Positions 2,761-44,932 of a DNA stretch of 64,000 bases are shown here, in pieces (position 1 is the first letter of the stretch; the number at the start of each line of letters is the position of its first letter). The DNA comes from Ancylonema sp. (Eukaryota), in contig JBFLGF010000124.1 of assembly GCA_050230475.1 (NCBI GenBank), positions 1 to 64,000 on the forward strand. The letters are read 5' to 3'. Below the pieces are notes generated by a model that saw only the letters and a list, made by a program, of their open reading frames with translations, was not told where the DNA came from and searched no databases. Both the position numbers and the translations under genes were made by a program.

Positions 2761-2772
2761 GGTCATCACACT

Positions 2773-4552: not shown

Positions 4553-4554
4553 GT

Positions 4555-4748
4555 TGACGTGCTGTTTGGAGTCGGCCGCCCGGAATGATATTCTTCGTAC
4601 GTTGACTTCTTGTTCCCGTATGTTTCTCGGAATGATGATTGTGGTAATGCTCGTGGTTGAGTAATGATGATGTTGACTGAGTTGGTATCGATGTCGTTCG
4701 AAGGTGATCGAAGGTTCTCAGGTGGAGTTGGTGGTCTGGCTGCTCTCA
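4555..4748 (-). repeat. Short LTR (~194 bp), family A, preceded by a polypurine tract
   Basis: Minus strand reads GGGGTGGGGAG (PPT, 4759-4749), then TGAGAGCAGCC...CCGACTCCAAACAGCACGTCA. Confidence 0.75.
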
Positions 4749-4791
4749 CTCCCCACCCCGAGCTGTGGAACGCTTGTGAAGGAGCTGGGAA

Positions 4792-5442: not shown

Positions 5443-5646
5443 GTTAGGTCCTAAATTGGTGGTTTGACTTTTGGCTCTATTGGTTTTGCCAGTAGTTTGA
5501 TCGTGAATCTTGACTTTAGATTTGGATTTGGTCCGTCCATGTGATGTAAGAGGATTGGTTGAAATTGGTTGACCAGAGGATCTAGTGTCCCTCCCCCCCA
5601 GAGTCGAGGTTGGTAAATATCTTTGTTCCGAGGTGAGGGGTGATCC

Positions 5647-6324: not shown

Positions 6325-6780
6325 TGTTACGACCTTCACCGGTGTGTACTTTCAACGACTTCACAACCGGGCCATAAAAGGCACAATGTCCAAGATGGGA
6401 CTTCGACAGGACAGATACAATATATACTAAGATCCCTGACAATATCCCACCCGCAGGGGGTTCGCGTCCCGAGAACCCCCAGCACCCCCAGAATGACCGG
6501 AGCTAATGTTCCGCGCCACGGGCACCCTCTTCCCGAGGGTGCACCCCGTATGTGAACGCGGGCCGGTCAATATATAATTTTTTAACCCCCACGGAAAATC
6601 CGTGTGAGCGAGAAAGTGGAGGAGACGGGATTCGAACCACCGCCCACCAATAATCTTGGACATTCTGTTACGACCGTCGCCGGTCTCTACTTTCAACGAC
6701 TTCACAACCGGGCCATAAAAGGCACAATCTCCAAGATGGGATTGGGACAGCACAGATACAATATATACCGAGTTCCACAC
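6325..6780 (-). mobile_element. TRIM-like mini element with ~115-bp terminal direct repeats
   Basis: Direct repeats 6325-6441 and 6666-~6780 (TGTTACGACC...CAGATACAATATATAC). Minus-strand PPT-like GGGTGGGATAT precedes 6441. Internal hairpins and a tRNA 3'-end-like segment at 6617-6638. No TSD found. Confidence 0.6.
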
Positions 6781-6781
6781 T

Positions 6782-8928: not shown

Positions 8929-11900
8929 TTGGGAAGAAGCAAACGTCTAGGAACGGGAACGACTCATGGGATTGACAACGGCGATACATGTGCTCCACGA
9001 ATCACGGAAGACCAACATAAAGTTATGTTGGGCAGAACTATGGATCGCAACATGGCCAAATGGCTAGGAGGCATGATTATGGCTACTCATGCAATACCAT
9101 CATACAACCTACCATAGGAATCGAACCCCAATCTTTTCAACCAATGATAGGGGGGGGGGCAACTACCAAATACCAGAGGCATATCATACACTTCACTATG
9201 ATAACCAAACATCAGAATTTTACCCCAACCATGACTATGCACACATTGTACCAGACAATGAACCACAACTTCGGAACCAGGCTATCTCCATGTTAGGCAC
9301 TAGTATTTGAAACTGATTATCAATATACCACGGTTACAGATGATAATGTCATCTCTCAACCTCATGACATCAATCCTACCACAGAGATTGAACTAATTAC
9401 ATGGAAGATAGGCAATAACTTGATAGAGGATCAAAAACTTCAAGTTATTGAACCACTCGAGGAAAATAGAAATGTATTCGCATTCTCTTTAGAAGAACTA
9501 CTACTTTCTAGCAATACACTTATGGAAATACCACTCCAAACTACACATCCAATTTTCCAAAACTCACACCGCCTGTTTGAAACAGAATGGGGATTTATGC
9601 GCGGCAACTGTCAAAAACTTCTGGAACTTGGTATGATCCGGAAGAGCGATAGCAACCATTACGCTTCCGCCACAGTCGTTGTTCGCAAAAAGGATGAAGA
9701 AGGCAACTACAGAGACTATCGTCAATGTGGAGATTACCGCCCTATCAACAACCAAACACAACAGGACAGATATCAATTACCACGCATTGAGGACATTTTT
9801 ATTGATATGAAGGATGCTCAGATCTTTTACAAATTGGACTTACGGCAAGGGTACCACCAAATACCAATCGCTGATGAAGACAAATGTAAAACTGCATTTT
9901 GGGGAGTAGACCCTCAACTATATGAATGGAATGTTGTACCATATGGATTGAAAGCCGCACCTCCTTTCTTCCAACGCATTATGGATCGCATCTTAGCTGG
10001 TCTTCGCAACTCCCGGTGCTAAATTGATGACATTAGCAACTGGAGCAGCACTTTCGACGACCACATTCAACATTTGCGTTAGGTGTTTCACCGCCTGCGA
10101 CAATTCAAACTCAAATGTCATCCAGGCAAATATTCATTCTTTGCAGATGAGATTGACTTCTTGGGACATAAGATCTCAGGTAAAGGTACTGCACCACAAG
10201 ATGAGAAAATCAGAGCAATCCAGGATATGCCTGCACCCAAGGATATTCATCAACTACGAGCAGCCTTGGGACTATTTTCTTACTACCGAAAATTTGTACC
10301 ACACTTTTCCAGTATTGCTTCACCACTCAATGGACTTCTCAAAGGTGATGTCAAATGGCACTGGGATGACCCTCAAGATACTGCATTCAAATAACTAAAA
10401 AACAAGCTTTGCTCTGAACCTGTCCTTATACGACCTGATAATAACTTACCATACATTCTGGCTACCGATTGGAGTGCTCATGGATTAGGTGCGGTACTCG
10501 GTCAGGTTGATAACGAAGGACAAGACTATGCAGTCGCATTTTCAAGCCGCAGTTGCAACAACGCAGAGAAAAACTACATTAGCTTCCATGGAGAGTGTCT
10601 TGCAGTCATTTGGGCAGCACAACACTTCAGACAATTCTTGTTTGGCAAACCATTTACCTTGATCACTGACCATGCTCCACTCAAATGGATTATGACTACT
10701 ACAAAACTTACGGGCGAATTGGCACGCTGGGCACTCCTACTCCAAGAATACGAATTCCAAGTTATTCACCGCCCCGACATTGCAAACTGTAACGCGGATA
10801 GATGCAGCCGATGTCCACTACCTGAAACCACCACAGACAACCATGAGAATGAGACACTGGGAGAGAAAACACCATGTTATTACTTCCAGACATCCCCAAC
10901 TCTTCAAGTATCACCATCATACTACCTCAGTTACCACCAGGATACACCACAACCTGAAGACCTCAAAGTTGACATTTGGGATGATAATGCTACCATGACA
11001 TTACTCAAAACCCACCAATACATACCAACTCTGAACCAACAACAAAAGAATCGGGCATACCGCAGAGCACTCAAATACCGCTGGATGGGGAAATATGTAT
11101 ACAAAATTCCCCACACTGGACATTTGAAAATTGTACCTCCACCACCAGAAAGATTACCATTGATCAAATACCATGCACACTCGTTATGGTCATTTTGGTG
11201 TCAAACGAGTACTTCATGCACATCAACAAGACTATTGGTGGCACGGACTGGGTGACCAAGTCATTCAGTGTATCAAAGACTGTGTCAACTATTCTCGCTC
11301 GAAAGGGACATTTGCAGAAGGAAGAACACAACTACAACCTCTGCCTATACGTGGACTATTTTACCGCTGGGGAGTCGACTTCGCAGGACCACTACCCACA
11401 TCCACAAATGGCAATATCTATGTCATGATCTGTGTTTAACACTTCACTAAATGGGTGGAACTCATTCCACTCAAGGATAAATGTGCCAAATCTGCAGCCA
11501 ACGCACTATTATACAATGTTCTTTCCAGATTTGGTGCACCAGTAGAAATCCTCACCGATCAAGGAGCAGAATTTGAAGGTTCCTTCACCAGTTTACTAGC
11601 TAGACACAACATCACACACCGCAGTGCAGCCAGAGAACATCCACAAACAGATGGATTAGCTAAACGCATGGTACAAACCATGAAACTTTCTCTACGCAAA
11701 ATACTACTCAAAGAACACCGCACAGACTGGGATCTGTATCTACCATACGTAGCCATGGGTTACCGCATGACCAAACAAGCCTCTACCGGCTACTCACCAT
11801 GCTATTTACTATATGGACGACACCCCATCTTTCAAGCTCAAATCCAACAAGCTGAGAATGACCCTTCACCCGACGCACTACGTGACTTACCACAATTCAT

Positions 11901-12370
11901 TCACGAACGCAGTAAACTATTTGAGGAAGTCATGCCTCTCGCCATGCGCAACCTCGCCATAGCACAACAGAGATCGACATCAATACTTCCGAGTTCATAG
12001 TGGCAACTGGGCCAAAGCAAAACCACGCTTTCACCGCAGACAGTTTGTTTATGTCAAACGCCAGACCAAAGGGACTCTCGATGTAAAGACTCACCCACAA
12101 ATACTCAGGGTCACTCAAATCCGTCCCTCCGGATACATTCAACTTCAAGGCAAAGATGGACGAAGAATATGGGAGCAAATGGCCAACATATCACCATGTA
12201 GCCTCAGCATTCAGGATGATGAAATTGACGTGAGCTGCTTCAACAGCGCAGACCCTACATTATGTCGTCAATGCGGATCCCGCAAAGATGAACGCAACAT
12301 CATTCTCTGTGATAACTGCAACGACGGCTATCACATCTTCTACTGCCTTCGTCCTCCATTAACAGAAGTC
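8929..12370 (+). mobile_element. Ty3/gypsy pol with DNMT C-terminus, RT, RNase H, integrase and a truncated PHD finger
   Basis: WEEANV*ERERLMG...VMLGRTMD (DNMT motifs IX/X, ~8930-9070). RT: CGDYRPIN, LDLRQGYHQI, PYGLKAAP, [Y>stop]IDD. RNase H: TDWS, LITDHAPL. Integrase: HFG..C, WGVDFAGP, LTDQGAEF, HPQTDG. PHD: CRQC...LCDNCNDGYHIFYCLRPPLTEV (12263-12370). Confidence 0.92.
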
Positions 12371-12485
12371 CGAACCTACAACACTTCATCTATCCAATAC
12401 TCTTCTACAACGATCAACTACACCGATGACACCTTTGAGTTCTACAGAAACCCATCATGAGCAACCGACTCCAAACCGCACGTCA
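12371..12485 (+). repeat. Partial family-A-type LTR (3' part)
   Basis: Ends GCAACCGACTCCAAACCGCACGTCA, the terminus also seen at 3199, 4555 and 24980; followed by the family leader starting TGTCATGACG. Confidence 0.6.
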
Positions 12486-12487
12486 GC

Positions 12488-13747
12488 TGTCATGACGCTA
12501 GAGATCGTTAAGGGTTAAAACGCCTTTGTAACAATATCCAGACCTCTCTAGTAAGCATACTTTGTTAGAAGCAATCAGATTCGATATAAAGATTTCATGA
12601 TTTTGTGTGAAGTTAGAATCAGTACTCCGCAATCCAACAACTTTTTGTAAACTCGAAAATAACGCGTGGCGTATTTTTCCGAGTGTAATATCCAGCAGTC
12701 GTACAATTTAGATTGCGTGTCGATTTTTCAGCGCTTCGCGCAACTTTGTTATCGACGATGATATTTCCGACTTGTCGATATTATCCCGGCGATAAAATCC
12801 AGCCGTAGAATACTTGACGTCTGAATTTGTATAGCGCCAAGATTAAATAGTACTTTCTAGAGTACAGCCTCGATTAACCATGTCGTCTAGTTAGTTTTTA
12901 CGATTAGACAGACGATCGTAGCATAAAGACATTTTCATAGTACAGATCTGTCAGCTTCCGCTGTCAGATTGCGTCGTCAAGAAACTTTCAAAATATCTTA
13001 TCTCAATATCCTGTCAATTGTATTCTCTGACTTTTGCAACTCCTGGCCGACGCCACTTCTTGCCATCATATGCGTGTCTTGTCTACAATTATTGTTGCGA
13101 CTACTGTCGACGAATTTTGTAAGTTGACCGAAGTGACCTTCGCAACTTCCTGTCATTACTTGTGTAGTCCGTTGACGCTCTTACTGAGCCAGCTTGTAAG
13201 CTTGATTGTTTACCATCACATCTTAGTACTGACGCTTTTAGTGAGCCATTCCCAACCGTCTACCACGTTGCTGACGCTCTTATTAAGCCAGAACTACTTT
13301 GTCGATTTACACCAATCTGTTACCGCTCGTACCGAGCCAATACGATAACGACGCGCAACTACTTGTTGACAAACCACATCCATCAATCAACATCTGTCAA
13401 CGCTCCGTTTGACATCCGAACTTTCTACTCGAAAGTTTACCTTTCGGCCGTCGACCTTAATATTATGCACCAGAGTCAGAGTATTCTGTTTACTATCAAT
13501 AATCCTTTTCCAGACTTTCTATTGTTGATATTAATTGTCGACTCGCCCTCGGCGTCAAGTAGTGTTCCACACATTCAAAAGTGTGATAGAAGTAGCGTAA
13601 CACCTGTTCTCCTCAGGACTCAATCTGCAACCCAACTTCAATCACACCAGCGAAAGACTTTTTCACTACAGAAAGTTAGTACCCAAGTTTTCAAAAAAAA
13701 AAAAAAAAAACTACTTACTTCGATGTTCTAGAACACTTGACTAGTAT
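12488..13747 (+). mobile_element. Family A long 5' leader
   Basis: Homologous to 4552->3393 (-); leads into the ATG at 13748. Confidence 0.7.
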
Positions 13748-15360
13748 ATGTGGACAAGGAACAGTAGTGGAAGATTGTCCAAACTGGAAATACCATTAGG
13801 AGAAACGGGTGAAACAGCAACTGCACCAGCTGCTGACACCAATAACCCTAATACATATCAGTTTGACACATCACTATCAGAATTCGAAGATTTCGAGAAA
13901 TTACCACCTCACTTGTTCAGTGAACCATCGGAATCTTCATCAGACTCTGAACAAGGGGTACAACAATTTCCACCAAACCATATCGAACGACATAATTCGG
14001 TACCTACCAATTCTTCATAAAAATTATTTGCAGACCTTTTTCTGACTCGATCGGTTCTGCCGATTGACCCACAAACTGACCAGATTGTCGATATTTCGAT
14101 ACCGGGTGCACCAGCCACATCGGAGACCACACCGGAACCATCGATACCTCTACCAGTACCGGGACCAGTCGCAGCACCACCACCAGTCTTACCAGTCTAT
14201 CGAGCACGGATTAAAGGTGGGACAGACCACACTATGGTTAACCCAACGCCACTACCAACATACTACGGTGACACAGGAGTGAAACAAGATGAGTTTATTG
14301 ATAGTCTACGACAGTACCATCGAACCCAACAGCGTGCACAACGCATGGGACATGTTGACTGGGATACTGTTTATTTGTGACCACAGAGGCCTACCTATCA
14401 TAGAAACCAACAGGGATTTATGGCGAGAATACTTTGCTAATGTGGCTTACTACAACATTCAAGGACGCATGGATGGACAACCAAGACCATTGAAACCAAC
14501 AGAAGTGGAACAACTCATCACAATTCTGAAAACACGATTCCGCACCTCTGCAGCTGAATATGTCTTACAAATTGAAAATTTCACTACACGCATGGGGCAA
14601 GTACATACGCCAGATTCAACGAGCCAGCAACCATTGTTCAAGATGCAGGTGCCATGACAGAAGAACAATTGGCCAGACGTTATCAAGGGCACATTCCATT
14701 GTCTTTGCAACCTTACATTGACGATTGGCACTTCTCTGAATCTAAGCATCGATACTATGCTACACCACAACTACCACCTATAACTAGGAAAGAGATCATG
14801 GAGAAAGCAACCAAGGCTGAACTTCTCAAAATGAAACAAGACGTAGATAATCGAGCTGCAGAAATTACTAAGTCTTACACTCGACCACAAACAACTTCTT
14901 CTCCTTCCACACAACAACGACAAAACAATGGATTTCCACCACGCTCGGGCATTCCATTGACATGTTCTTCTTGTGGAGGACCTCATCTGGCTCGTGATTG
15001 TCTTGGCAACAAGAAACCAAACAACTATCAGCCTACAACTCACAACCAGACAGGAAGCTCCAAAATCAACCCTTCACATAACACACAGTTCAAGGGAGGA
15101 AACTATGGAGGCAACCAAGAGCATAGACAACAAAACAAACCACCATTCAAACCTCGGGAACGACAATATGACGCAAAATAATATACTTTTGATGCACAAT
15201 GTGAATACTGCAAGGGTCGACAGCACACAAAGGACCAATGCAGGACATTCAAAGCACACAAATTACTCACCTTGGCAACTACACCTGCTGCATAACAACC
15301 AAAGTTACTGGAATGGTCCAAACCTGACCAACAACCAAGTTACATTGTCATGCAGTTAGA
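13748..15360 (+). pseudogene. gag-like ORF with two zinc knuckles (decayed)
   Basis: CSSCGGPHLARDC (~14963-15001) and CEYCKGRQHTKDQC (~15200-15241); broken by stops and frameshifts. Confidence 0.75.
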
Positions 15361-16019
15361 TCTGGAACGTCAACGGGACTTGGAGGCTATGTCCTATCAC
15401 AACCAAGGGACAGAGCAGGTAATCGACCATACGATACCATGTCAATATCTCATGACTACCAGGAAGTCTACCAGACTATCTGCCAAGAAGAAAAAGCCAG
15501 TTGTGAAGAACCAAAAAACACAATTTCATGACCCACTTGTTCAGCCTGATACACCACCAAGCTCAAGATCGAACACATAATTCCACACACCACCACCTTC
15601 AAGAGAGGATACATGGACACCCATTCCACCTCTACCAAATCCACTACCAATGCATTATCTACCAGACCATGAACCATCTACGTCTACCACACCTTACCTA
15701 GAACCACATCCAGAAATATTGTTGAATATGCAGAATAGGGATGGTGAAGATTATGGCAGGCGACAAGGGTCTTCTACCAAAATGCCAGATTCATTTACAT
15801 GAAGATTTCCTATCCGACTTGAGGCAGGGACAACAAACATGAACCAATTTCATGATACAGAGGCACCACCTCCTCTACCACTACCTCAAGCACAAACACT
15901 TCATGACACTTTGCATGCACATGTACTTGCGTTACGTACCCAATTGCAGGTGGCGGAAAAGGCCGAACAGCAGGTCAAGGAACTACTTGCCCACACCACC
16001 ACAACAGTACACCGCAGTA

Positions 16020-16500
16020 TCAGACCCACCAAAAACCAAGAACCGCAGCCGACAAGACACCAACTTCGGTATTGCACTTCTCAAAAACAACAAAGGAGTC
16101 TTGGCCATTCATGACCATATACCAACTAACTGTGTAGTTGACAGTGGGGCCATTAAAACCATGATTGGCAGACCTATGGCTAATCGCATGGGCATCACTG
16201 CAAATATGCTCAAACCTGGAACACCTTACATTACTGCATCACAAGAAATGAGCTTGGGATCTACGAAAGAGAAATTTCCCATCCACATTGACAGAGGAAC
16301 TCCCAATCCCACACCTATCTACTTGGAATTGCATATGTCACCATCACGAGAATTTGACATACTACTGGGTAACGATTTTTGGGGACCAATAAGAAGATAC
16401 TCAGATCCATGGCAACATCTGTTCTTCTATAGAGCAGATTGGAAAAAAGGGGGGACTATGTTTAGCCTCTCTACCACTCACAGTCAGACAAACTTCTCAC
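16020..16500 (+). mobile_element. Retropepsin-type aspartic protease domain
   Basis: CVVDSGA (catalytic DSG) and FDILLGNDFW within ORF 15852..16709. Confidence 0.85.
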
Positions 16501-17600
16501 AAACTGAAGTTTATATGGCAGATGCTGCAACTCCTACACTCTTCCTTACCCCAGAGGATAGGGCTGCAGCAACCAAACTCAAGGAAGCACACCGCAAGGC
16601 CGCTACAGATGCTGCAACAACCTCCGCAGCAATAGCAGTCAACCGCAGCATTCAATTTGGCACCCAACCAGTCACCATCACGGAACCAGCAGACTTAGAG
16701 GTCACTTAAACTCAACTGCAAATCACCAAGGAAATTGACTGGGTCAATGACTTTCCCAGTACACCACCCGAAAAAATTGCTCGACGCAGACCTGCACGTG
16801 AATTCCGCAAAGGAGTGGATGAGAAACCACCACCAGATGACGAGTACTAGGCAGACGTCCGCGACACCATGACAGAATACATCAAAAAATTTGTATGGCG
16901 GACCCATGTGGCAACAACACTCTCACGCATACCTCAACTGGATATTGCAAACAAAAATATTGCGCGCAGTAGTCACTTCCAAAAATTCTTTGAGACAAAA
17001 GGTAAAAGGTTTCTATGAGGAATTCGCCGAATCCTCACCACGGGTCTTACCTCAACAACCATCGGGAAGCATGGAAATTGCAGACAGTGAAGCCACTAGA
17101 GACTCTACACAGGAGGAGTCCGCAGAGAAGGCAGAGGATCCACCAAGCGAATCCAACACTCGTGCACCCGACCAAGCTGTGGCAATGGACCAGGATGATC
17201 AACTATCACACCAACCAAATCCACCAGTACAACAGTCCCTAGATCCCACAACAGCTGAACTACAAGCTACCATCACTTCCCTTTAGAAATACAAGGAAGA
17301 ATCAGATCAAGCATACGCAAACCTTTTCAAACAACACCACCAACTACGTGACAACATGATCAAACAACATGCGATCGAAGTAGCGGAAATTCGACAATCC
17401 ATCAACCACGAGGTGGAGCTACGTATCGCACCTCAAATTTTGCAACAAAAGGCAACTCATGAAAAACACATTGCAGACACCATTCAGCAACGGGAACAAG
17501 CATCAAGAGAGGTCAGCAGATTGAAATGCAGATTGGAGAAAACAGTTGGTCAATTGACACTACTTCAACAAGACATGAAGGCATTGCGCAAAGGGAAAGA
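16500..17600 (+). pseudogene. Coiled-coil-rich linker ORF of the family A element, interrupted by the chromovirus
   Basis: Heptad-like Q/E/K/L-rich text. After removing 17601-23269 and one TSD copy, the frame reads ...ALRKGKEVSGSSDSND to a stop at ~23464. Confidence 0.6.
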
Positions 17601-18015
17601 TGTTAGACCCGGGAGGGAAAAGGATCTAGTTCGATGAACACTCACAAAAAGGGAAATGACACGATGGGAAAAGTGTAATAAAGTATGTTAGTACATGAGA
17701 TGTTAGGAGTGAGGAATCCTCAATCCTAACACGAACTATATAGTGAAATCTCGGCTAGCGACTTCACTACAAATGTGGGACAATGAGTATCGCTCTAAAC
17801 GAACAACTGATGTCGCATACAAGAACTAGTCGCTATAAACGAACACTCGATATAACAATGCGAAACTCTACAAGGGAAGGGCTCTAGCTCTCCCTAGAGC
17901 GACCCAAGTCGCGGTACAAGAAAACACACTCGCTACTAGCTAGCACACTAGGCTAGTAGCGCTAGGTTAGGGAACTCGCTAAGGAGCCCTAGGGACTATA
18001 GCGAGGGTCCTAAGA
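17601..18015 (-). repeat. 3' LTR of the chromovirus
   Basis: Repeat of 22861-23256; preceded on the minus strand by PPT GAGGGGGGGGTAC (18028-18016). Confidence 0.92.
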
Positions 18016-21000
18016 GTACCCCCCCCTCTAGGCGCGGAATACAGGGCGCGGGTAGCAGGACGGGCTCGGAAGCGGCGACGGAAATCCGCGATGACCGCGG
18101 TGGCATGTGTGAGATTCTGAGCCGGCTCCCAGGAGCGCTCTGATTCGTCGAAACCCTCCCAGTCCACGAGATAGTACAACTTGCCACGCAAGAATTTGGA
18201 ATCCAGCACTTCCCACTGGGGTTCGCCGTCCACGATGACTGGTGGAGGTTGCGGCACGTCACGGCCAGGAAAAGGATTTTTCACATATGGCTCCAGAAGC
18301 GCTACGTGGAAAACGGGATGGATGCGGATGGACGGCGGGAGCTCCAAGCGAAAGCAGAGGAGCCAACTGGACCAATGACAGGAAAAGGCCGGAGGCGACG
18401 GACGTCCAATTCGCAGAAGGTCGTGTGGATGCGACGTGGCGCCGGAGGAGCCATACTTTATCGCCAGGCTGGAGGGATGGGGCAGCCCGACGCTGCGATT
18501 GGCCGATCGCTCCATAGCGATTTGGGATTTTTTCAGCGACGTTCGAGTAGAATCTGTGCGTCGTGAATCCACCTTGACGTATGCATCTGCCGACGGGGTT
18601 GGGGAGTCCGGGGAGGGAGGGAGGAGGGAGAGTTGGGGATGGAAACCGTGGTTGGCGAAGAACGGGGTCAGGGATGTGGCAGAATGTAGGGAATTGTTGT
18701 AGGAAAATTCTGCCATGGGCAGCAGACTGGACCAATCCGACTGCTGGTAATCGGTGTAGATGCGTAAATACTGCTCGAGAACAGAATTGAGGCGCTCCGT
18801 CTGGCCATCCGTCTGAGGGTGAAACGCAGTCGAGCGGTTGGCGTGGATACCGCACAGCTGCAGCAGCCGTCTCCAAAAACGGCTGGTAAAGACTGGATCG
18901 CGGTCGGAAAATGAATGGTGGAGGGCATGCCATGGAGCCGCACCACCTCCCGCAAGAAAAATGGCAGCGACCGTCACGAGCTGGTATTGCCTTCGTCGTA
19001 GGAATGAAGTGAGCAGCCTTAGTCAGACGGTCGACCACTACGAGAATCGCATCGTGGTAGTTAGATGGCGGGAGGTTCTGTGATCCAAGCCATGGATATC
19101 CAGCTCCATGGCCTGTCCGGACTAGGATTTGGGGATAGCAGGCCGGAGGGTGCATGGGCGGACGGGCTTATTCCGCGCACATGTGTCACAGCTGCGGACG
19201 TAGGGCCTCCACTGCTGTAGAAATTCCCGGCCAGTAGAAGTACACTGCGCCACGAGCGCATGCGTGCGAGCAACGCCGTAACCTGCGAGGGGCGCGTCGT
19301 GGAATTGCTTTAGGATTTGGAGTATCAGGGACGTAACAGTAGGTGGGATGACCAAGCGATGATGTCGGTACAGCAAATCATTGCGTAGACAATAGGAAGA
19401 TGACCTGCCTGAGGGTTCGAGGGGGTTTGATTCCTCCTCAGGTCTTATAGCCAGCTGTTCGCGGATGGCGAGAGTGTCAGGGTCGAGTAGCTGCGCCTCA
19501 CGGATAACAGGTAATATGGGGTCCGTGGGGGAGATGAAAAGCGCAGCAGCTCGGAGGGGGGGGGGGAACAGGATAGGGAAATCGTCCGGGGGGGAAATTG
19601 GGGAAAGGGAATCGGGTAGGATTGGGGAGTTCGGGGATTGGGTCTGGCTGGTAGTCGGGACGGCGGGATAGGGAGCATCAGGCTTTCCGTTAGTCTCGCC
19701 TTTTCGGACGTCGGTAGACGATAGTGAAATCGTAGGCAGCTAGGGTCTCTGCCCAGCGAGCGTGGCGGCGAGAGGTAGTGCGGGCGCCATGGAAGTATTC
19801 CAGGTTTTTATGGTCTGTACAGACCACAATAGGATGAGCCGCGCCCTCCAAATAGACGCGCCATTGGCGAAACCCGCTGACGATAGCCAGCATGTCATAG
19901 ATGGGGTAGTTTAGCTCGGCCTCCGAGAACTTTCGGGAGTAGAAGGCGATGGGGTGTAGCTCGCCGGCAGCGGACGTCTGGCTGAGGACGCAGCCAAGGC
20001 CGAAGTCGGAGGCGTCGGCTTCGAGGGTTATAGGGAGGGTGGGTTGGACGTGTTTGAGGATGAGTGCAGATGTGAAGGCCTGCTTGAGGGAGTCAAAAGC
20101 GACCTGGGCCTCTGGTGTCCAGCAGAACTTCACGACTTTTCGGGTGGGCGTAGTCAGGGGGCAGGCCACTGTAGAGTAGTAGTTTATGAACTTGCGGTAG
20201 AAGTTTGCGAACCCCAAAAAGACTGCACCTCCTTTACAGACATTAGGGGTAGGCCAGTCGAGCACAGACGTCACCTTGCCGGGTCCATCTCCACCCCAGC
20301 TGGGGAGACTTGGTAGCCGAGGAAGGTAATGGTGTCCTGGTGGAACGCACATTTCTCAATCTTTGCGTCGTAGAGCTTGTTATGTCGTAGGATAAGGACC
20401 TGGCGGACTTGGGGAACGTGCTCTTCCTGGTCTGCCGAGTAGATCACCATGTCGTCAAGCATACCCGCTAGGAAGACGTCTAGGTGCTCGCGGAAGATGT
20501 CATTGATGAAGTGTTGGAAACAGCCTGGGGCGTTGCAGGGCCCGAACAGACAGACACGGAACTCAAAGTGGCCGTAGCGGGTTCGGAACGCAGTCTTCCA
20601 CTCGTCCCCCTCTTTCACCCGCACCTGGTGGTAAGCGTTTCGCAAGTCGATCTTTGTAAAGATTTTCGCCCGGTGCAAGCGATCCAGCATCTCAGGTATG
20701 AGGGGTAGGGGGTAGCGGTTCTTTACTGTAGCCATTCAAATGTAGTCCACACAGAGTCTGAGCTTGCCATCGGGTTTCTTAATGAACATGACAGGGGCCC
20801 CCGCAGGGCTGGTAGATGGTCTGATGAATCCGTTTGCCAGGTTGTCAGAGATGTATTGTTTCAGAGTAGCCAGCTCCGCTCCGGTTCTGACATGGGGCAG
20901 ATGGGTCCCCAAGGTGGTTCTTTTCCTGTCAAGAGGGGTATCGCCAGATCATAGGGGCGGTGAGGGGGAAGGGTGTTTGCCGCAGATTCCGAGAACACGT

Positions 21001-22860
21001 CCGCGTAGTCGTGGTACTCGGGGGGAAGTTTAGACAGCAGTTCAGGGTCGGGGGGCGGGGATGGGTAGGGAACTGGCAACAATGAGCGCAGGGGGGGGAA
21101 GTATTGTGACAGGGGTGGGGGGGGGGTTTGTGAGAAGTGGGTGGGGTAAACTGAGCGCGGCTAGCAGGCATGCACTCTGGCAGTGGGGGGACGTGAACCG
21201 CAAACCGCCTGCCTGCCAATCGATGGACGGGTTGTGGCGCTGGAGCCAAGGGTAGCCTAGCACCATGGGAAAGTGGGCTAGGCGGGTTACGTCAAACCGG
21301 AGTGTTTCGGTATGGGAGCCCAGACAGCGCAACAGGCCTTTGTAGAAATGCGTAATAGGGCCTGCGGACGGAGCGCTGCCATCAATCAGCTCCACTTGAT
21401 GGGTGTGGGGTGGGGGGTGGTTGTCAGGTGGTGCTGAGCGAGCAGCGTGGGGTCTACGAAGTTTCCACGCGCCGCAATCGATGAGGGCGTTGACAGAAAT
21501 GGGGGGAAGAGGGTACTGGAGTAGCTAGACTGACAGATACAGGTGGCGGGGCTGGGGGGCTGGGTTGGGGATGGGGTGGGAGGGTGTGAAGGCCCTGCAG
21601 ACAGACCCCTCCTAGGACTGTCCGGGGGCATCGTTTTTTGGCTGGTCAGGAGAAGTGTCCAAAAAGCGGACCTAGCTGGCCTGGTTGGCCGGCTTCGCCG
21701 GGCAGGAGTCGCGGTTATGGCCCGCGCCTCCACAGTACATGCAGAGGTTTCCCTTCTTGCGCCTATCATATTCTATGGATTCCAGCTGGAGCCGTTTGCG
21801 CCGGGTGCCATCGAGTTCCATGGGGGTGACTTCTTGGAGGTAAGAGGGGGTGGGGCGAGAGGCTTGAGATGGGGAAGTGTAGGGTGGTTTGCGGATTGCA
21901 GCGTCAATGCGACGGCTGTTGGCGAGGTTGGTTTCGACCAGGCCAGCAGCCTTCACAAAGGAGAAGGTGGGGGGTTGTGTAGAACGCGCCAGCTCGCTCT
22001 GAATCGCATGTTTCAGTTTGGCTTTGAAGTTGAAAATCAGGGAGTGGTCCGTCCAGCGCGGCTGGAAGGTGTTGGTGATGACCCTGAACCGAACAGAAAG
22101 CTCAGCCACTGATCCCGTGTGTTGCAACTCGTGCAGGCGGCGTTCGAGGGCTGCCTGGTCCTCTCCCCCCCCGAACGAACGAATGTGTGTGTCGTTCGAG
22201 TTCCTGGAAGAAGTCTGCCAGGGTCCAGTTTGTGGGGGGCTCTGCGGTGACTGGATCGCAGACGGAGCGGAACCAGCTCTTGGCCATGCCGCAGCAGATT
22301 GCCCGCCAGAATCAGTTTAGATCTGGTAGTGTGATAGCGTAGGGGGCTGCTGTGTTGGGTAACCCCAAAACGGAAGTTTTGCAGATCTGCTGACTTGCCC
22401 GAGAACATAGGAGACAGGGGTAGGTTAAGGTCAGGGGCTGGGGTAGGGGCTGGTGGGTGAGGAAAACATGGGGGGGGGGGGCGGGCTGGGTATAGGACTG
22501 CTGAGGGGAAGGCTGAGTGTAGGGAGACTCATCAGCTAGAGGTATTTGTGAACTCAGAAAATGTGGGCCGAGTAGAGCCGGCCTCCTCATAGATGCTAGT
22601 TTTGTAACGGAGTTCCTCATTTTCACGTGTGAGACGATCATTATTGGAATATCCGAAACGTTGCCTTCATTCATTTCCTGCATTTTTCGAATTAAGTTCA
22701 TAACGCGAATCTGAATCCATGAGAAATGGGAAGAAAAAATGACAGAAATGAAGAAGGAAAATCTGAAAGATGGGGAGGAGAGGGGTGGGAAACCCTAAAG
22801 AATAAGCTCACTGGTGGAAAAACCGAAAAAGAACCTCACAAATTTTTTCTCCTAACATAG

Positions 22861-23256
22861 TGTTAGACCCGGGAGGGAAAAGGATCTAGTTCGATGAATA
22901 CTCACAAAAGGGAAATGACACGATGGGAAAATAATGTATGTGAGTACATGAGATGTTAGGAGTGAGAAATCCTCAATCCTAACTCGAACTATATAGTGAA
23001 ATCTCGGCTAGCGACTTACTACAAAAGTGGGACAATGAGTATCGCTCTAAACGAACAACTGAAGTCGCATACAAGAAACTAGTCGCTTAAACAACCGATC
23101 AACACTCGATATAACAATCATTAGCGAAACTCTACAAGGAGGGCTCTAGCTCTCCCTAGAGCGACCCAAGTCGACAAGAACACACACTCGCTACTAGCAC
23201 ACTAGGCTAGTAGCGCTAGGTTAGGGAACTCGCTAACTATAGCGAGGGTCCTAACA
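22861..23256 (-). repeat. 5' LTR of the chromovirus
   Basis: TG...CA ends; TATATA at ~22990-22995; followed on the minus strand by a non-tRNA PBS at 22858-22849. Confidence 0.92.
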
Positions 23257-23300
23257 GTACCCCCCCCTCAAAGAGGTATCGGGATCTTCGGACTCTAACG

Positions 23301-24872
23301 ATGATGCGCATATGGGAGATCCCGATGACATCACCACTTTTGCAGGAGTACGAACCACACAAGATCACCAACGGGTACCAATATCTCCCAGTGATGCACG
23401 ACCTCTCAACCGCAGAAAAATCCACCCAACAAATCCTCCACTACCTACCAAACCCAAGGTATAAGCATACTTGGTCATGCATCCAACGACGAGTAGTGGA
23501 CCCAGCGCAACACCCTCACCAACATCTACACCCCAACCTGTCAGGTCGCCACCACTCCACTCGATACAACCATCAGTACAACATATCGCACTTGGAGGAA
23601 ACACAAGCTTGGGACAACTCTTCATCACCAATATGGAAGAATCTCGCCTACCTGCGCCACGCGAGGTCACTGCATAATACCCTCAAGATGATAGGGATCT
23701 TACTACTGTGGAAATATCCAGATCTATTCCCCAACCAAATCCAAATCACCTCAGCATTCAGAGTACCCAGTCTTCAAACTATGATCGATCGGAAAATCAT
23801 CCCTGCAACTCTTCAAAAAATCCAACAAGAAGAAATTCAAAGACAGATTTACAAACCAACCCAACCAGACATCATCAACCATTTGGTGCATGAACATGCA
23901 CGACAAGGTAAGAAACTACTAGCCAATGGGAGAGCCAGAGCCCAAACCACCACTCAACCATTTCCTATTCCACTCAACTGGAAGGGCCGCCAACTCGATG
24001 GCACGAAACCCCTTCCTTCTACTATCAGCTACATTCGTAAAGAGCGTTCCACCCAAGGAGTGCACATTTGGATCCCCTGGGCAAATGCAGACCTGGCTCC
24101 ACTCGTGTACAGCCTCAAACAAGGGAAACTCATCAAAGGCGTCACTATCGCCACACCAGACCTACACCGCAAAAATATCGTGCGTCAGAACCTGCGCAAA
24201 CTTCAACTCCATTACCCACATCTGTTACCAGACTTTGCCATCAATTTGTGTGACAACATTTTACCACCCCGCGCTGAGGACATCACCTTGGCTCAGATGA
24301 GAGAGTTGGTCGCAAAACATGGACCGATCGACATTGTGGGGGGGAACTGGCACACGGAAACACGCCGATCATTCAGTGGACTGCAAGGGGCCAATGACTA
24401 CCGCATACTACCCTTCTTCTCAGTCCTATCATGGCTGCATTGGCAGAATGAGATCTATGGCTTCTATCCCGTCACCCTATTCTTCACACATGTGGACTAC
24501 CCGGAATGCCCACTCTGGGCCATCGAACATGGTTACTTGGCTGAAGCTTTCCTCGGACCATCAATCACTATTGGCGCAGCCACCTTGGCTGGAAATATCA
24601 TTCGACCTACCCGCATCTGGACCAACATTCTCACACCACGAGAACTTCACTACTGCATACCCGAATATAGATTTGCACACGCTCTGGACAAACAAGTGCT
24701 GGAACCAACCCATACTGCAGTACCTGTCTCTAAGGAGGAAGCTACACCACACACCCCGAACATATATGAGCAACCACGCTGCGTTTTTCCACAACTTCCA
24801 CCATACCTGGACTCAGTGAGAGCAGCAGAGCCATACTACGTCTATTATCGACATCGACACCAAGACCACTAA
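23301..24872 (+). CDS. Open 523-aa ORF containing a DNMT-fold pseudo-methyltransferase (copy 2); C-terminus cut by an LTR at 24817
   Basis: LRKLQLHYPHLL...LPPRAEDITLAQMRELVAKHGPIDIVGGNW aligns with IEKLIREYPGEI...LPEDVGLIGEMALVNLIAQNGEVDIVGASW of the 1591-2760 DNMT. Motifs I, IV and VI are replaced by IWIPWAN, WHTE and FFTH. Confidence 0.75.
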   Translation: MMRIWEIPMTSPLLQEYEPHKITNGYQYLPVMHDLSTAEKSTQQILHYLPNPRYKHTWSCIQRRVVDPAQHPHQHLHPNLSGRHHSTRYNHQYNISHLEETQAWDNSSSPIWKNLAYLRHARSLHNTLKMIGILLLWKYPDLFPNQIQITSAFRVPSLQTMIDRKIIPATLQKIQQEEIQRQIYKPTQPDIINHLVHEHARQGKKLLANGRARAQTTTQPFPIPLNWKGRQLDGTKPLPSTISYIRKERSTQGVHIWIPWANADLAPLVYSLKQGKLIKGVTIATPDLHRKNIVRQNLRKLQLHYPHLLPDFAINLCDNILPPRAEDITLAQMRELVAKHGPIDIVGGNWHTETRRSFSGLQGANDYRILPFFSVLSWLHWQNEIYGFYPVTLFFTHVDYPECPLWAIEHGYLAEAFLGPSITIGAATLAGNIIRPTRIWTNILTPRELHYCIPEYRFAHALDKQVLEPTHTAVPVSKEEATPHTPNIYEQPRCVFPQLPPYLDSVRAAEPYYVYYRHRHQDH

Positions 24873-24980
24873 AGAGATACATCAACAAAGCAGACCACCA
24901 AGACCACACCTTGATAACCATGTAACTCAGATATACCCCCACAACCTCATTATAAGCAACCGACTCCAAACCGCACATCA
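24817..24980 (+). repeat. Short family-A-type LTR (~164 bp)
   Basis: Starts TGAGAGCAGC (as at 4748) and ends CCGACTCCAAACCGCACATCA; no TSD and no PPT. Confidence 0.7.
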
Positions 24981-25137
24981 CGGCTAGCTACCCTTAACCC
25001 ACCAATATCTTGGAGGAGTAGGTGTTCTAACCATTGTGAAAACCTTGTTTTGCAATGATGGGAAGTGCAAATCAAGCATTCTCGGTGATTTGCCGAGCCG
25101 GGGTCGCGGGAGCTTTTCCCCGTCTTGGGGGGGGGAG

Positions 25138-26716
25138 TAAGCATTAATTTGAAGCGCGTTGTGATCGCGCGAGTTGCAGCACCGCATGCCGTCTAGACGC
25201 GGTGATGGGGAGCGGTGCTCGGTAATTGCATGCCGTCTAGGCGCGGTTATGCGAGTATGGAGTGTGCCTAGGGAGATGGCCTTGCTATGTGATAGCTTGT
25301 AGTCGAGTGGACCTTGTTATAGTCACGATGTGTACGGTGTGCCTATACGGTGTAGTGCTTGCACGTGTAGCCGTTTGACTTTTGGTTGGAGTTCCGTATA
25401 GCGGCCGTCAGGCCACGAGACGTCCCAAAGAAACGTGGTCGTGCACGACTCCCGGGTTGAGGGGTTATGTAGTGACACGCTCACACTTATGTGATTGGCC
25501 GATTGTGATCGTCTTCGATTGCGGCTTTGGGTAGAATATGTTCGGACTAGATGAGTTTGATTGGACGCGTGCGTACGATGTAGATTACATCATAGCGTAC
25601 GGAAAGTACAAGTAAGTCTAAAGTGCCTTGTTGGACTTTCGGACTACGTATTTTGTGAAGTAAATTAGTGCTTTAATCAAGGGAAATGCCGAGTTGTGGC
25701 GATAGTAATAATTGTAGAATTAGCGTGGACCGGAGATGTGCCTATAATGTGCATGTGTGTCTATGTTGTGAGTCAATACAATATGCATGTGGATGTGAAT
25801 CGGCAATTATGTAGGTTGCGCTTAGGCGCAATGGGCGCGGAAGCGAGTACTATGAGTTTGTACCGGTTTACTTTAGTACCGGACTAAGTTGCACTAGATT
25901 TGCGTAGTTGAGTGTGCACCAATGGGGTGAATATGAATAGTCGCATTATTGTGTTCATGGGAAATGACGTTAGCGAGTAGACTTTAGTCAACCTACGCAC
26001 CGGTTGGTTAAACCGATTTGTCCTCGGCTTGTGAGGCAAATTCAATATATACTCTACGGAGTTTTCATGACAAATAATTCATACCATCATCGCTTTTGTT
26101 TCCAGTGGGATTCTAGTCTATTAGTGTCTTGCCATTTGTCACGGACAGTTTGGATTTGTATGTAATTCACGAGAAGTCGGAGAGCCGGCGAATTTAAGAC
26201 CTGTACGGCAGGCAAGGGATTGGCCCACTATGGCTGATCCTTCATTTTGATGCATGAGCACTGTGGCTGCATTACGCCACAGTGCATACCGATGAAGCTT
26301 TGGCAAGAGCGGTGACGTGGCACTTTGTGATTGCGTTGATAATTGGCCATGGCTATTTCAAAGGCTGATATCTCTGAGCGAATGCTATGTATCGTAGCGG
26401 TGATCATTTGCTGCATGCGATAGTGTGTTCGACGCGTCTAGAGACAGAGCTCGATATCTTGCCCAATACTTTAGTGAGCATTAATTTGAAGTGCGGTGTG
26501 ATCACGCAAGTTGCGGCACCGCATGCCGTCTAGGCGCGGTGATGGGTAGCGGTGCTCGGCAATTGCATGCCGTCTAGGCGCGGTTATGCGAGTACGGGGT
26601 GTACCTAGGGAGATGGCCTAGCTATGTGATAGCTTGTACGGTCGAGTGGACCTTATTATAGTCGCGATGTGTACGGTATGCCTATAAGGTCTAGTGCTCG
26701 CACGTGTAGCCGTACA
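25138..26716 (+). mobile_element. Non-coding LTR-element remnant with ~237-bp direct repeats
   Basis: Repeats at 25138-25374 and 26475-26713; the first is preceded by PPT GGGGGGGGGAG (25127-25137); no coding capacity between them. Confidence 0.65.
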
Positions 26717-28655: not shown

Positions 28656-29052
28656 CAGTGTGCGGGGAGCCCAACGAAACCCTTTGGGCTCCGGGATCCA
28701 CCCGAGCCGAGCCCAAGATCGCGGCTCCGAGCTCATTTCGGAGCCCGGATCCAAAGATCCGGGCTCGGAGCCCAAAATTCACACAAAAAAAATATAAAAT
28801 ATAAAAACATAATTTATCTCCTGACGATCTGGCCGTACGATCCGTTTGCTTTCCCGTTTTTTTCATGAATTTATGAATCATGGGCTCCGATCCCGAATCT
28901 GAGCCCGGATCCGAGCTCGGATCTTACGCTCCGACGTGGGCTCCGACGTTTAGCTCGGAGCCGGAGGAAGAACACCCTTTTGGGTTCCGGGATCAATGAG
29001 CCCGGATCTTGAGTTCATTAGAATCATTGGGCTCCGGGCTCCCCGCACACTA
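28656..29052. mobile_element. hAT-type MITE
   Basis: TIRs CAGTGTGCGGGGAGCC / GGCTCCCCGCACACTA; 8-bp TSD ATTTCATG / TTTTCATG; subterminal GGCTCCG/CGGAGCC repeats. Confidence 0.88.
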
Positions 29053-29525
29053 TTTTCATGACTGGTACGTCACGTGTGAAAGTGTAATGATTGCAAGCTG
29101 TTGACAGTAATTAACTTTCGACGCGAATTTCGGGTCGCCTGTACGGATTGCCGGCGGGACATCATCGAAGAAGGTGGCCTAGTGGGGGAGGGGTGATTAA
29201 TGGCGCACTGCTTCCTTCTGACGACTTCATGCGTTCGTCAGGTGCACTCGATCGGAAGGAGAAGACCGTCACGCCCCAACCTGTGCCTTGACGCCTTGCC
29301 CAGTGCCTTTCCCATTGAATGTATTAAGCATGACCGTGACCGCGCTTCTGATTTAGATGGGTAGCTTGGAACCAGATTTGTGTGCCGCAGCTTGAACCGT
29401 CTGCTGCTGGGCTTGAGAGGGGATAATTTTGATGTTGAGCCGGATTTATTAGTCCTCGCAGAGAGAAGTAGATCAGAAACAGGGCAAATGACTGGGACAT
29501 CACTGGCGCTGGCAGCGCATACTCG

Positions 29526-32345
29526 ATGATCGATGCGCACACGACAATGGAGATAGACAACAGGCTCGAAGAAAGGCATTCTCGTGGAGAAATATTTTTC
29601 TCGGGAGATAGTGTAAGCAGCTTGGAAGACGCTGGTGCTTGTGGGGAAGATGGCGACAAATCTAGTGGCGAGGCAAGCGAGCCAGAATTCCGAGTCCACT
29701 CTTGTTCCAGTACCTCGGCTCCGAGTCAAGGGCCGGGTTCAGGGCCTGAAGTCGCTGGTGGATCTGACAAGTCTAAGGGTGGTCTGAAGGTCGTAAATGG
29801 TCTACTACACCGGCCCCTCAGGCCCCTAACGGTCGGGTCACGGCGAGGGGGGGACGTGAGCCCCCTTGACACGCCCACCCCGGCAGAGGGAGGGGACAGT
29901 GGTAAGGGGGGGGCTATGTGGCATCGGCGGGATGGTCTAGGATCTGGAGGGCGCGGCAGGATTGGCTTGCCGGAAATCCGCCTCGATCTCGGGGTTGTCC
30001 AGCGTGGCAGAGACATGTCAGAACCGACAGAGCTCCAGCGGCGTCGCGACAAGTTCAGTTACTTCGAGAAGCATTGCTCCAAAGTGCTCGACCACGTGTA
30101 CGTGGGGAGTGACGTGGTCGCCAAGAATCTGGACACGCTTCGGAACGCAGGCATCACGCACGTGCTGAACTGCGTCGGATTCGTCTGCCCGGAGTACTTC
30201 CCGGACGAGCTGACGTACACAACCTTGTGGCTCCAGGTGGGTCCCACACATCCAACCGCTTGCAGGGAGGGGTAGTCACGTGCAGTTGGTAGGGCATGGG
30301 TGGCCTGCGGCACTGTGGTTGGCCCAACTCCCCGCTGTGGCTGGGAGTTGGCGGGGCCTCACACATAGTTGAGGAAGCTTGTTGTACCACACAAGCCTCT
30401 GGCAGAATTATCCCCCCCTGTGCATCCCCTCTCGGATTCAACCACAGAACGGATGGAGAGTCGAGAGATACCCACCCGTGACGTCAGAAAGGAAAAGTCT
30501 AGGTCAAAGTCAAAGTTGAAGTCAAAGTCAAAGTCGGGTCGCTCCCTCTGGCAGTGCACAGGAGTTTGACAGCAGTGGGGGGCAGGTCTGACTTTCAGGT
30601 GAATTTCTGTTGTTCTGTTCTGTTGTCGGCAGGATACCCCAGGAGAAGACATCACTTCCGTTCTCTACGATGTGTTTGATTACATTGAAGAAGTAAGGAG
30701 GAGCTCTGGTCGGGTCTTCGTCCATTGCTGTCAGGGCGTATCGCGATCCACGTCACTCGTCATCGCTTACCTCATGTGGCTCCAGGTCAGACTTCTTTTC
30801 TGCCAATTCTGGCGCCAAAGCCGGCAGAAGCGCCCGAAGTCGCCAAATTGGTAAAATTATAAGGCAGAACTGAAATGGCTCCCAATTTTTGTGGGCAGAA
30901 GAACCTGACAGCGGATTTCCGACTGACTTCTTTACGGTTGTGTGTGTCCGGGCAGGCCAAAAGTTTCGAGGAAGCGTTCCGGTTCGTGAAATCTGCCCGA
31001 GGCGTGACCAACCCCAACATGGGGTTTGCCTGCCAGCTCCTCCACTGGCAGAAAAGGATTCTGGGCGCATCTAGTCCCCCCGCCCGCCTGTACCGAATTG
31101 CGCCCCACAGCATCCACTACGACCCTATGCACCTCGTTCCCAAGGCCCTCCCCCACCCCTCCAGCGAGGGGTTGGACCCCAGGGGCGCCTTTTTGCTGCA
31201 GGTGGGCCCCACAGTCCTCCTGTGGCGGGGGCATGCCAGCAGTGACGCTCTGGTGCTCGCCGGCCAGCTGGCAGCGGGTCAGATTGTGCGATACGAGAAA
31301 TTGGGGGGGGGGATTGTGGCTCTGGAGGAGGGGAGGGAGGGGCCGCAGTTCTGGGAGGCTCTGACGCAGCCGCCGGGGGGGGGGGAGGGGGAGGGGGAGG
31401 GGGAGGGGGAGCAAGGGGGGGAGGCCCTGTTTTCGACAGGGGGGTTGGGGGGGTTGGGGGGGGAGGGGGAGGAAGGGACCGGGAGTGGGAGTCAGGTGAG
31501 CTACTTTGGGGAGTTGGGGGGGGGGGGGGGGAGGAAAGTGGGACCCACTTCTGAACCCCAGGGTTTAAAACAAGGGAGTAGTGATCGACCGCCGACTGGG
31601 AAAGGGAGGGGGGGGGGGAGGCAGGTAGAGGATAAGTCAGAGATTTTGGAGTCAAATGTGGAGCGGGGGGGGGTTGGGGGGGGGGGAGGGGGAGGCAAGC
31701 ATAGAAGTGCCATGTAGAAGTGAGGGGGGGGAGGCTGGGGATTCGAGTCTTACGGAACGGAACTCGGAATCGATACTCATCGCCAAATTCAGGGACGCGT
31801 GGACGTCGGATTCGGATTCGTGGGGGGGGCAGAAGTTGCGCAACAGGAGTCAGAGTTGTGACTTGAGTCGGCATTTGAGTCTGGACCGGGGCGGGATCAT
31901 GTCGGGAGGCCTGAGCCCGCTCCGGAACTCGCCGAAGAGCCCCCGGGTAGCCATTTTCGGGATGTCGAAAACTGGCAGGGGGGGGGCGGGGGGGCAGGAG
32001 GATAGAGAGCGGGGGGGGGGGTGGAATCTGAAGGAGGGTATCCTCTCCCCCCGGCGAAGTATGAGCGTGGATCTGTTTGACGTCACCCCAAAGAAGAGGG
32101 AACGGTCGGAGAGTCCGAGGAAATGGAGGGAGAAGGGGGGGAGGGGGGGGGGGCTGTTTCTGCTGCCTGAAGTTAACGCATACGACGAGGACTTCGAGGC
32201 CATTGAGGGGGCGCTCTCTGGAAGGTCGCCGAAACTGCTTCCGGAATTGACGAGCCCGCGGAAATTGCTGCCTGCCAGGGCGAGTGGGTGGGCTGGGGTT
32301 GGGGGGAAGAGAGCGGCGGTGGGGGTGGGGGGGGGGGTCATGTAG
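29526..32345 (+). CDS. MKP1: Plant MAP kinase phosphatase 1-like dual-specificity phosphatase; exons ~29526-30236, 30633-30785, 30956-~32345
   Basis: RRDKFSYFEKHCSKVLDHVYVG, THVLNCVGFVCPEYF, LQDTPGEDI, catalytic VHCCQGVSRS, VTNPNMGFACQL, gelsolin-like LDPRGAF. GT-AG introns join in frame. Apparent frameshift in a G-run near 31690; 3' end uncertain. Confidence 0.9.

Positions 32346-44895: not shown

Positions 44896-44932
<37 letters not shown>

Follow-up and report, generated by a model that had tools for sequence, protein, structure and literature searches.

A DNMT3-type domain predicted to be catalytically dead, in a damaged retrotransposon copy from Ancylonema sp.

Why retrotransposons carry DNA methyltransferases is a standing question, and a locus of Ancylonema sp. 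sharpens it: what would selection keep in such a domain when the residues of methyl transfer have been replaced? The locus lies in a stretch of 64,000 nucleotides (contig JBFLGF010000124.1 of assembly GCA_050230475.1, positions 1 to 64,000, forward strand), referred to here as the window. An open reading frame (ORF) at 23,301-24,816 had been put forward in an initial annotation as a retroelement-encoded, catalytically dead DNA methyltransferase kept open by selection. The reading that we prefer, tentatively and at a little less than an even chance, is that the ORF holds a damaged copy of an old, multi-copy clade under purifying selection, which likely encodes the C-terminal end of a Gag-protease polyprotein and whose product likely binds the element's own reverse-transcribed DNA without catalysis. 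The domain, its motif positions and its relatives in the window are the following.

23,730-24,815, + strand: DNMT3-type domain, predicted to be catalytically dead, in its true frame and cut after the target-recognition region (tblastn, phmmer, hhalign, fold search)
24,066-24,086, + strand: motif I position, IWIPWAN in place of ELFSGIG (FxGxG), with predicted loss of S-adenosylmethionine (SAM) binding (alignments)
24,345-24,359, + strand: motif IV position, N-W-H-T-E (WECQ replaced by WHTE), Thr at 24,354 in the place of the catalytic Cys (alignment)
24,480-24,491, + strand: motif VI position, FFTH, Glu lost and Asn replaced by His (alignment)
24,603-24,611, + strand: motif VIII, R-P-T (HRLRYFWTN replaced by IRPTRIWTN) (alignment)
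5,647-6,327, - strand: second dead-type copy, of another sublineage, covering motifs V-X, its 5' part replaced by another element
about 1,563-2,760, + strand: broken catalytic-type retro-DNMT3 sister copy, with a protease remnant upstream at 4-200

Homology and modelling indicate that the ORF descends from the DNMT3 fold family, with unpermuted homology over motifs I-VIII and a DNMT3-like fold. Within the window, tblastn aligns ORF residues 144-455 with the DNMT-like copy at 1,578-2,521 (20% and 33% identity, E 3e-12) and the ORF with the second copy at 6,327-5,890 (33% over 147 aa, E 1e-23); residues 1-143 are without DNMT similarity, so that the alignment along the whole ORF proposed earlier stands for its later part only. 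Among 34 phmmer matches of the ORF, PF00145 is seen in 15, none of them among the 11 dead-type matches. Alignments of the dead and catalytic types match in hhalign with probability 99.78 over 234 columns, and a mixed profile of the two finds DNMT3B and DNMT3A as best PDB matches (E 5.5e-12). An AlphaFold2 model from the mixed alignment (predicted local distance difference test, pLDDT, 74) has DNMT3A and DNMT3B as its top fold matches, with DNMT3A first in Foldseek (E 2e-5), and superposes on DNMT3A with Z 12.6 and a root-mean-square deviation of 4.3 over 197 aligned residues, unrelated Rossmann folds reaching Z of about 9; its identity to cellular DNMT3 structures is 11-14%. The motif order runs from I to X, which rejects a DRM-type permutation. 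Neither the ORF nor the catalytic-type fragment had a match in word-index searches of proteins, and a search with the dead-clade profile found eight proteins, three of them new. No relatives occur in the viral and metagenome contigs scanned. A single prokaryote match was rejected as a chance similarity of 24 residues to what we take to be an alpha/beta hydrolase, and the phmmer match P0031 was dropped, its similarity being confined to the out-of-frame, low-complexity start of the ORF.

The motif swaps described in the initial annotation hold in register in alignments with catalytic-type sequences. TIATPD of the ORF aligns with TYVDxD of motif II, its acidic residue replaced, and both motif I and this acidic residue are gone in all four dead rows that cover motif I. 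None of eight dead rows has the motif IV Cys, which 18 of 20 catalytic-type rows have; in the dead rows its place is taken by Thr (five), Gln (two) or Arg (one), with the preceding residue also varying. The motif VI Glu is found in none of eight dead rows vs 12 of 14 catalytic-type rows. Where they cover these positions, the dead sisters do not retain the FxGxG, Cys and EN signature. At motif VIII, all six dead rows have Thr for the second Arg, which 10 of 11 others keep; the first Arg is kept in five of six dead rows. No conserved Cys occurs elsewhere in the dead-clade sequences, which rejects a migrated nucleophile such as that of the RNA m5C/m5U enzymes. Since the established chemistry of C5-methyltransferases (PMC2965745) needs the lost residues, the domain is predicted to be unable to methylate cytosine by the usual route.

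The lost residues have given way to others that are shared across the clade. Asn and Glu around the motif IV position are fixed in eight of eight dead sequences, and a Ser/Thr-Pro of the loop, the motif VI His, the Pro..Pro.Trp that follows and the motif VIII Thr are fixed in the dead clade and rare elsewhere; these fixed residues concentrate at the old active site. Dead and catalytic types have in common FLG, the D-x-R of motif V and, in motif VIII, the first Arg and WTN. The sibling P0004 and copy 2 of the window extend through motifs IX and X, and in both of these dead sequences a motif X residue is replaced by His. Motif I variants of P0011, P0026, P0021 and P0033 (WEPL, WEPF, YEPF) resemble steps from ELFxG to WIPW; P0033 is included in the tree described next, the other three being too short for it.

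A tree was built from 30 rows over 119 columns, and in it the ten dead sequences form a single clade (support 99.9/100), which persists when the motif IV and VI columns are removed (99.8/100). The clade splits into five deep sublineages that have diverged by 0.6-1.0 substitutions per site. Six dead representatives share 35% identity on average and the catalytic-type rows 39%, vs 23% from one group to the other, and the two dead copies of the window agree at 48% of first, 60% of second and 33% of third codon positions (146 codons). The initial annotation had claimed that the second copy shares the substitute motifs, and this is borne out, in a copy that itself carries two in-frame stops.

The family is multi-copy and is seen in two studies: the region 23,275-25,130 is matched, over a range of identities, by 2,399, 856, 178 and 16 contigs of four public runs, of which the best-matching run may be the window's own source. 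No RNA run was among those listed, a result that has no bearing on expression. Variants among these siblings separate the fate of the family from that of the window copy. We called a variant private to the window copy or its branch where at least 95% of the depth differs from the window, an arbitrary cut-off, and segregating below it; 40 of 370 variants were listed, and with 29 in the whole ORF, 21 of which lie in the domain, the sample is small and unphased. Among the listed domain variants, ten replacement and two synonymous changes are private, whereas one replacement and eight synonymous changes segregate among siblings (Fisher p 0.0019 for segregating vs private; p 3.4e-4 against a neutral synonymous share of 0.29). 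The family is therefore under purifying selection while the window copy drifts neutrally, since the synonymous excess lies among the segregating variants and the private ones follow a neutral pattern. Monophyly, derived residues shared at about 35% identity and the synonymous excess among siblings thus support, on grounds other than those first given, the proposal of a selected pseudo-enzyme lineage rather than random decay, and a selected pseudo-enzyme clade is very probable from these comparisons.

The reading frame of the window copy is a poorer witness. The host unit of this copy, and the 3' end of copy 2 with which its repeats are compared, are made up as follows.

12,488-13,641, + strand: A repeat, 5' terminal repeat of the host unit (747 of 1,058 aligned bases match the copy 2 A repeat; score 747 vs a shuffle maximum of 425)
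14,000-15,500, + strand: broken gag-like region with CCHC knuckle-like motifs (six-frame translation; assigned by position and motif)
15,843-17,600, + strand: aspartyl protease and coiled linker of the host element (PF13650/PF13975; 24% match to the P0037 protease; codon phase)
17,601-23,269, - strand: nested chromodomain Gypsy element splitting the polyprotein (long terminal repeats, LTRs, at 17,601-18,028 and 22,861-23,269; 5-bp target duplication)
23,301-23,729, + strand: linker DNA, the out-of-frame 5' part of the ORF (variant classes, stop positions, sibling length difference)
24,817-24,980, + strand: B repeat, fused to the domain by deletion (microhomology with the A-repeat end; weak match to copy 2 B, 106 vs a shuffle maximum of 89)
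3,199-4,775, - strand: 3' end of copy 2, comprising a purine tract, B1 (4,752-4,555), A2 (4,552-3,395) and B2 (3,394-3,199) (repeat alignments)

In the ORF listing of the window, the frame at 23,220-24,872 (+) is without stops and measures 550 aa from stop to stop, so that the more than 500 open codons first reported are real; they are not evidence of upkeep, however, as the start is out of frame and the copy is damaged. The first 17 codons of the stop-free frame are supplied by the LTR of the nested element, and the first 142 or so codons of the annotated ORF are out of frame relative to the real coding sequence. A stop stands at codon 54 of the annotated frame in nearly all sibling contigs, and of eight variants listed in 23,301-23,725, five are synonymous in the upstream frame vs one in the annotated frame. 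This upstream, coding frame over 23,301-23,729 has stops at 23,462 and 23,675 in the window copy. Siblings differ from the window copy by 11 nt near 23,725 (in both contigs of one run, with loose ends in the other three), and by arithmetic this difference joins the upstream frame to the DNMT domain. Openness is weak evidence, since the chance of staying stop-free at this length is 0.26-0.13 for 2-3% random divergence. At its other end, the domain of the window copy stops at 24,815, where it passes via a short microhomology into the terminal repeat (loose ends at 24,811-24,815 and 24,980), whereas sibling sequences run about 80 aa further, through motifs IX-X (P0002, P0004). The idea of an ORF kept open therefore fails for this copy, which carries a frameshift, is interrupted by the nested Gypsy element, is cut at 24,815 and, by its private changes, is drifting.

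Copy 1 runs in the order A repeat, gag-like region, protease, linker, domain, deletion and B repeat; 14,579-15,178, within the gag-like region, has no Pfam match. The protease at 15,843-16,709 joins the domain across the nested insertion with its target duplication, and the frame open at 17,600 resumes as the upstream frame past the nested element, whose LTRs show 11 differences over 397 aligned bases. This continuity of frame, the variants that are synonymous in the upstream frame, the 11-nt difference that joins the frames and the layout of P0037 and P0018, catalytic relatives with a knuckle, a protease and a DNMT but no reverse transcriptase (RT), suggest that the domain is no free-standing ORF and likely ends a Gag-protease polyprotein. 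The join from gag to domain rests on the target duplication and codon phase, the sibling comparison having covered 23,275 onward. The protease remnant ahead of the catalytic-type copy in the window fits the same protease-DNMT layout. A domesticated host gene was rejected, as the sequence is multi-copy and lies within gag/protease and terminal repeats. The position of the catalytic DNMT3 domain in elements of relatives is mobile: in P0033 it lies between RNase H and integrase, and in P0018 and P0037 after the protease, in RT-less frames.

Copy 2 retains the 3' side that copy 1 has lost. No RT, RNase H or integrase was found between its domain and its 3' repeats, a span of about 890 nt before the purine tract. 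At 4,792-5,646 (-), a low-complexity open frame of 284 codons, without a Pfam match, continues in frame past the copy 2 stop and ends just before the purine tract. Elsewhere in the window, a pol at 9,297-12,370 (+) carries RT, RNase H, integrase and a PHD domain, without a DNMT insert; it is broken, its PHD is truncated and its repeats are related. The region 9,297-12,485 is 38-43% identical to P0033, minus the DNMT insert of the latter, and this pol is a plausible helper for an RT-less dead-DNMT element. It runs into a B-like remnant and then into the A repeat that heads the gag unit, a junction that may mark either a helper/dependent recombinant or a two-unit element. The B-A junctions at 12,485-12,488 (+) and 4,555-4,552 (-) both read CA, two bases, TG, and resemble joined integrase attachment ends; this form may bear on the replication of split-repeat Gypsy elements.

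What such a protein might do can be sketched from this layout. In intact siblings, gag, protease, linker and domain would form one frame, as in P0037 and P0018, so that the domain would be produced in quantities like those of Gag, enter the particle and be freed by the protease. For RT and integrase, at least the copy 2 sublineage would depend on relatives that carry pol and share its A/B repeats. The protein would then grip cytosine-containing DNA without methylating it, and sites on the cDNA or the new insertion would be covered or read, such that host de novo methylation is delayed or integration is steered. Given a selected clade, we put this non-catalytic DNA-binding mechanism at about an even chance. 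It is favoured because the two-domain fold seems to be kept whole and the pocket rebuilt rather than eroded: the fold, the length of the motif IV loop, the target-recognition region and motifs IX-X are all kept, as are two arginines that we take to be DNA-facing. The kept target-recognition region, motifs IX-X and the new pocket residues appear to fit nucleic-acid binding better than a bare scaffold of the DNMT3L type. A bolder reading is possible but doubtful, in which the rebuilt Asn/Glu/His/Thr pocket would serve a base-flipping reader or shield, or a SAM-independent base modifier, shipped at Gag level by RT-less, helper-dependent elements and controlling the methylation of new copies. A reader without catalysis has a precedent in CopiaMBD, a methyl-CpG reader captured by a retrotransposon (PMC6673714).

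Several points weigh against this reading. A Pfam scan of the ORF returned no family at E up to 1, PF00145 included, and a model built from the dead sequences alone is poor (pLDDT 47, confident only at residues 60-120), so that the claim of a DNMT3 fold rests on sequence homology and on the mixed model, which seems to owe its quality to the catalytic relatives in its alignment. An Atlas cluster match of 0.87, with PF00145 on 13% of members, is a lead only. Nine short rows of 39 were left out of the 119-column tree, and most relatives are short fragments. To the small, unphased sample and arbitrary cut-off of the variant test is added a mixed private class, as the linker holds private changes of which some leave the protein of the upstream frame unaltered. 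No intact full-length sibling occurs among the sequences seen; we infer both the one-frame fusion in intact siblings and the absence of RT from copy 1's own sublineage. The roles of the kept arginines are presumed by us from DNMT3A and M.HhaI. Finally, CpG depletion is alike in the dead copy of the window and in the catalytic-type copy (observed/expected 0.62 and 0.64), which gives no sign of protection from methylation.

Other explanations are less probable. It is unlikely that the dead domain pairs, in the manner of DNMT3L or DRM3, with the catalytic retro-DNMT3 of a co-packaged sister and stimulates or aims methylation of shared cDNA. Catalytic-type sisters do occur, both at about 1,563-2,760 in the window and among the phmmer matches. 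The sister in the window, which the initial annotation used as its active reference, is indeed catalytic-type but broken, with a stop at the Trp before ECQ, FLKN rather than FLEN, further stops and two frameshifts. The aromatics aligned with the two phenylalanines of DNMT3B, to which we assign an interface role, are kept (PFF, AFLG); the same aromatics stand in the catalytic sisters, however, and may be structural. Dead paralogues work as partners in mammals and flowering plants (PMC2965745), but a scaffold would leave unexplained the new invariant pocket residues and the retention of the target-recognition region and motifs IX-X.

A dominant negative in trans is quite unlikely. The domain would join DNMT3/DRM oligomers of the host, or take their sites, and so lower silencing of the family. 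In streptophyte hosts, which encode DNMT3, DRM and CMT, such elements are methylated (PMC5890265, PMC6453930, PMC12344493), the DNMT3 fold and the likely interface are kept, and the family is highly multi-copy, to judge from the 2,399 contigs of one run. However, the domain's low identity (11-14%) to cellular DNMT3 structures speaks against it, a host-antagonist surface is expected to change fast where the signal here is purifying, and a Gag-fused product would be particle-bound, with a benefit shared by competing elements.

It is distinctly unlikely that the domain is a structural passenger, kept folded only to give Gag-protease processing or particle assembly a stable module at the C terminus. 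In-frame fusion alone would select for folding, and many of the kept residues are core hydrophobics and glycines. Yet a premature stop after the protease would be a cheap means of removal, and five sublineages separated by 0.6-1.0 substitutions per site have kept the whole domain; nor does folding need invariant polar residues in a pocket. Those residues could instead point to new chemistry on a DNA or RNA base, the pocket having been rebuilt as another active site (Asn, Glu, His, Thr and the motif X His) that works without SAM. The clade-specific invariant residues are polar and occupy old catalytic positions, and the motif X His is in both sequences that cover it, but there is neither a conserved Cys elsewhere nor a cofactor motif, and the old Cys place varies (Thr, Gln, Arg) together with the residue before it, which makes this very unlikely. 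Neutral decay of a once-active retro-DNMT3 would account for the drifting, broken window copy and has parallels in the single Cys losses of the catalytic-type P0013 and P0014, but it is extremely improbable in the face of the same substitutes at about 35% identity with saturated third positions, monophyly and the synonymous excess of siblings.

The closest known system is KnitGypsy-Dnmt3 of Klebsormidium nitens (de Mendoza et al. 2018, PMC5890265), which we set against the window element by its published description. Both have an unpermuted, intronless DNMT3-type domain in a Gypsy-type element, and both combine Gypsy domains with DIRS-like split repeats in the layout A-coding-B-A-B (PMC5890265, Fig. 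4c legend), represented here by B1-A2-B2 after copy 2 and by the A and B repeats that flank copy 1 on its 5' and 3' sides. The K. nitens domain is described as under purifying selection (PMC5890265), which is indicated here by the eight synonymous changes to one replacement of a small sample. In contrast, key residues are conserved in the K. nitens domain as described (PMC5890265), whereas here the catalytic and SAM residues are all replaced by clade-specific ones; the domain lies in the Pol ORF there (PMC5890265) and likely at the end of a Gag-protease frame here; and copy 2 reaches its 3' repeats without RT, RNase H or integrase, in a region that is deleted from copy 1. No named K. nitens sequence is among the 34 phmmer matches.

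Like DNMT3L of mammals and DRM3 of flowering plants (PMC2965745), the dead domain belongs to a DNMT3-family paralogue that has lost the motif IV Cys and is selected beside catalytic relatives. Those two are host genes with N-terminal chromatin-reading domains (PHD/ADD, UBA) that promote silencing in the account of PMC2965745. The domain described here is element-encoded, with a protease and linker upstream and no Pfam match to ADD/PHD or UBA. It keeps its target-recognition region and motifs IX-X, and DNMT3L has lost both. CopiaMBD, whose captured non-catalytic reader is proposed to guide integration of an LTR retrotransposon, differs in that the MBD is a dedicated reader fold and not an enzyme fold turned non-catalytic (PMC6673714). 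The EpiLTR/DAM-LTR elements are likewise LTR retrotransposons with captured methylation-related domains, in which, however, the catalytic pocket is described as kept (bioRxiv 10.64898/2026.05.21.726589).

The remainder of the window holds other mobile sequences and host genes. Fragments of the nested chromodomain Gypsy family, at about 70% identity, lie at 6,772-8,926 (+) and 2,760-3,270 (-). An element without a long ORF, between 240-nt direct repeats that are 91% identical, occupies 25,136-26,713 and is possibly a small non-autonomous LTR element. An imperfect palindromic repeat resembling a miniature inverted-repeat transposable element is found at 28,657-28,988, with partial copies near 42,150-42,230 and 43,470-43,630, and a dispersed repeat at 27,493-27,650 matches 48,578-48,734. 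Two regions are host genes in exons: 29,472-32,345 (+), with weak DSPc and gelsolin matches, which we take to be MAP kinase phosphatase 1-like, and 44,482-47,704 (+), a CitMHS/ArsB-family transporter that is presumably Lsi2-like. The plant-like genes with their introns, together with the type of element, point to a probable streptophyte host.

Retrotransposon DNMT3s are known, and their catalytic residues are described as conserved (PMC5890265; bioRxiv 10.64898/2026.05.21.726589; PMC12344493). Self-methylation of cDNA has been proposed for them, and the Klebsormidium Gypsy enzyme showed no activity in yeast (PMC5890265). We found no report of a catalytically dead retrotransposon DNMT in the literature searched, with Repbase, subscription papers and Supplementary Fig. 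13 of PMC5890265, a K. nitens alignment that could show degenerate copies, outside its scope. As Pfam does not match the domain, surveys based on PF00145 would have missed it. A dead clade under purifying selection, with a diversity close to that of the catalytic clades, shows that in some such elements selection preserves something other than methyl transfer, and it points to binding as a core function. The dead and catalytic sister domains of one genome would allow a direct paired test.

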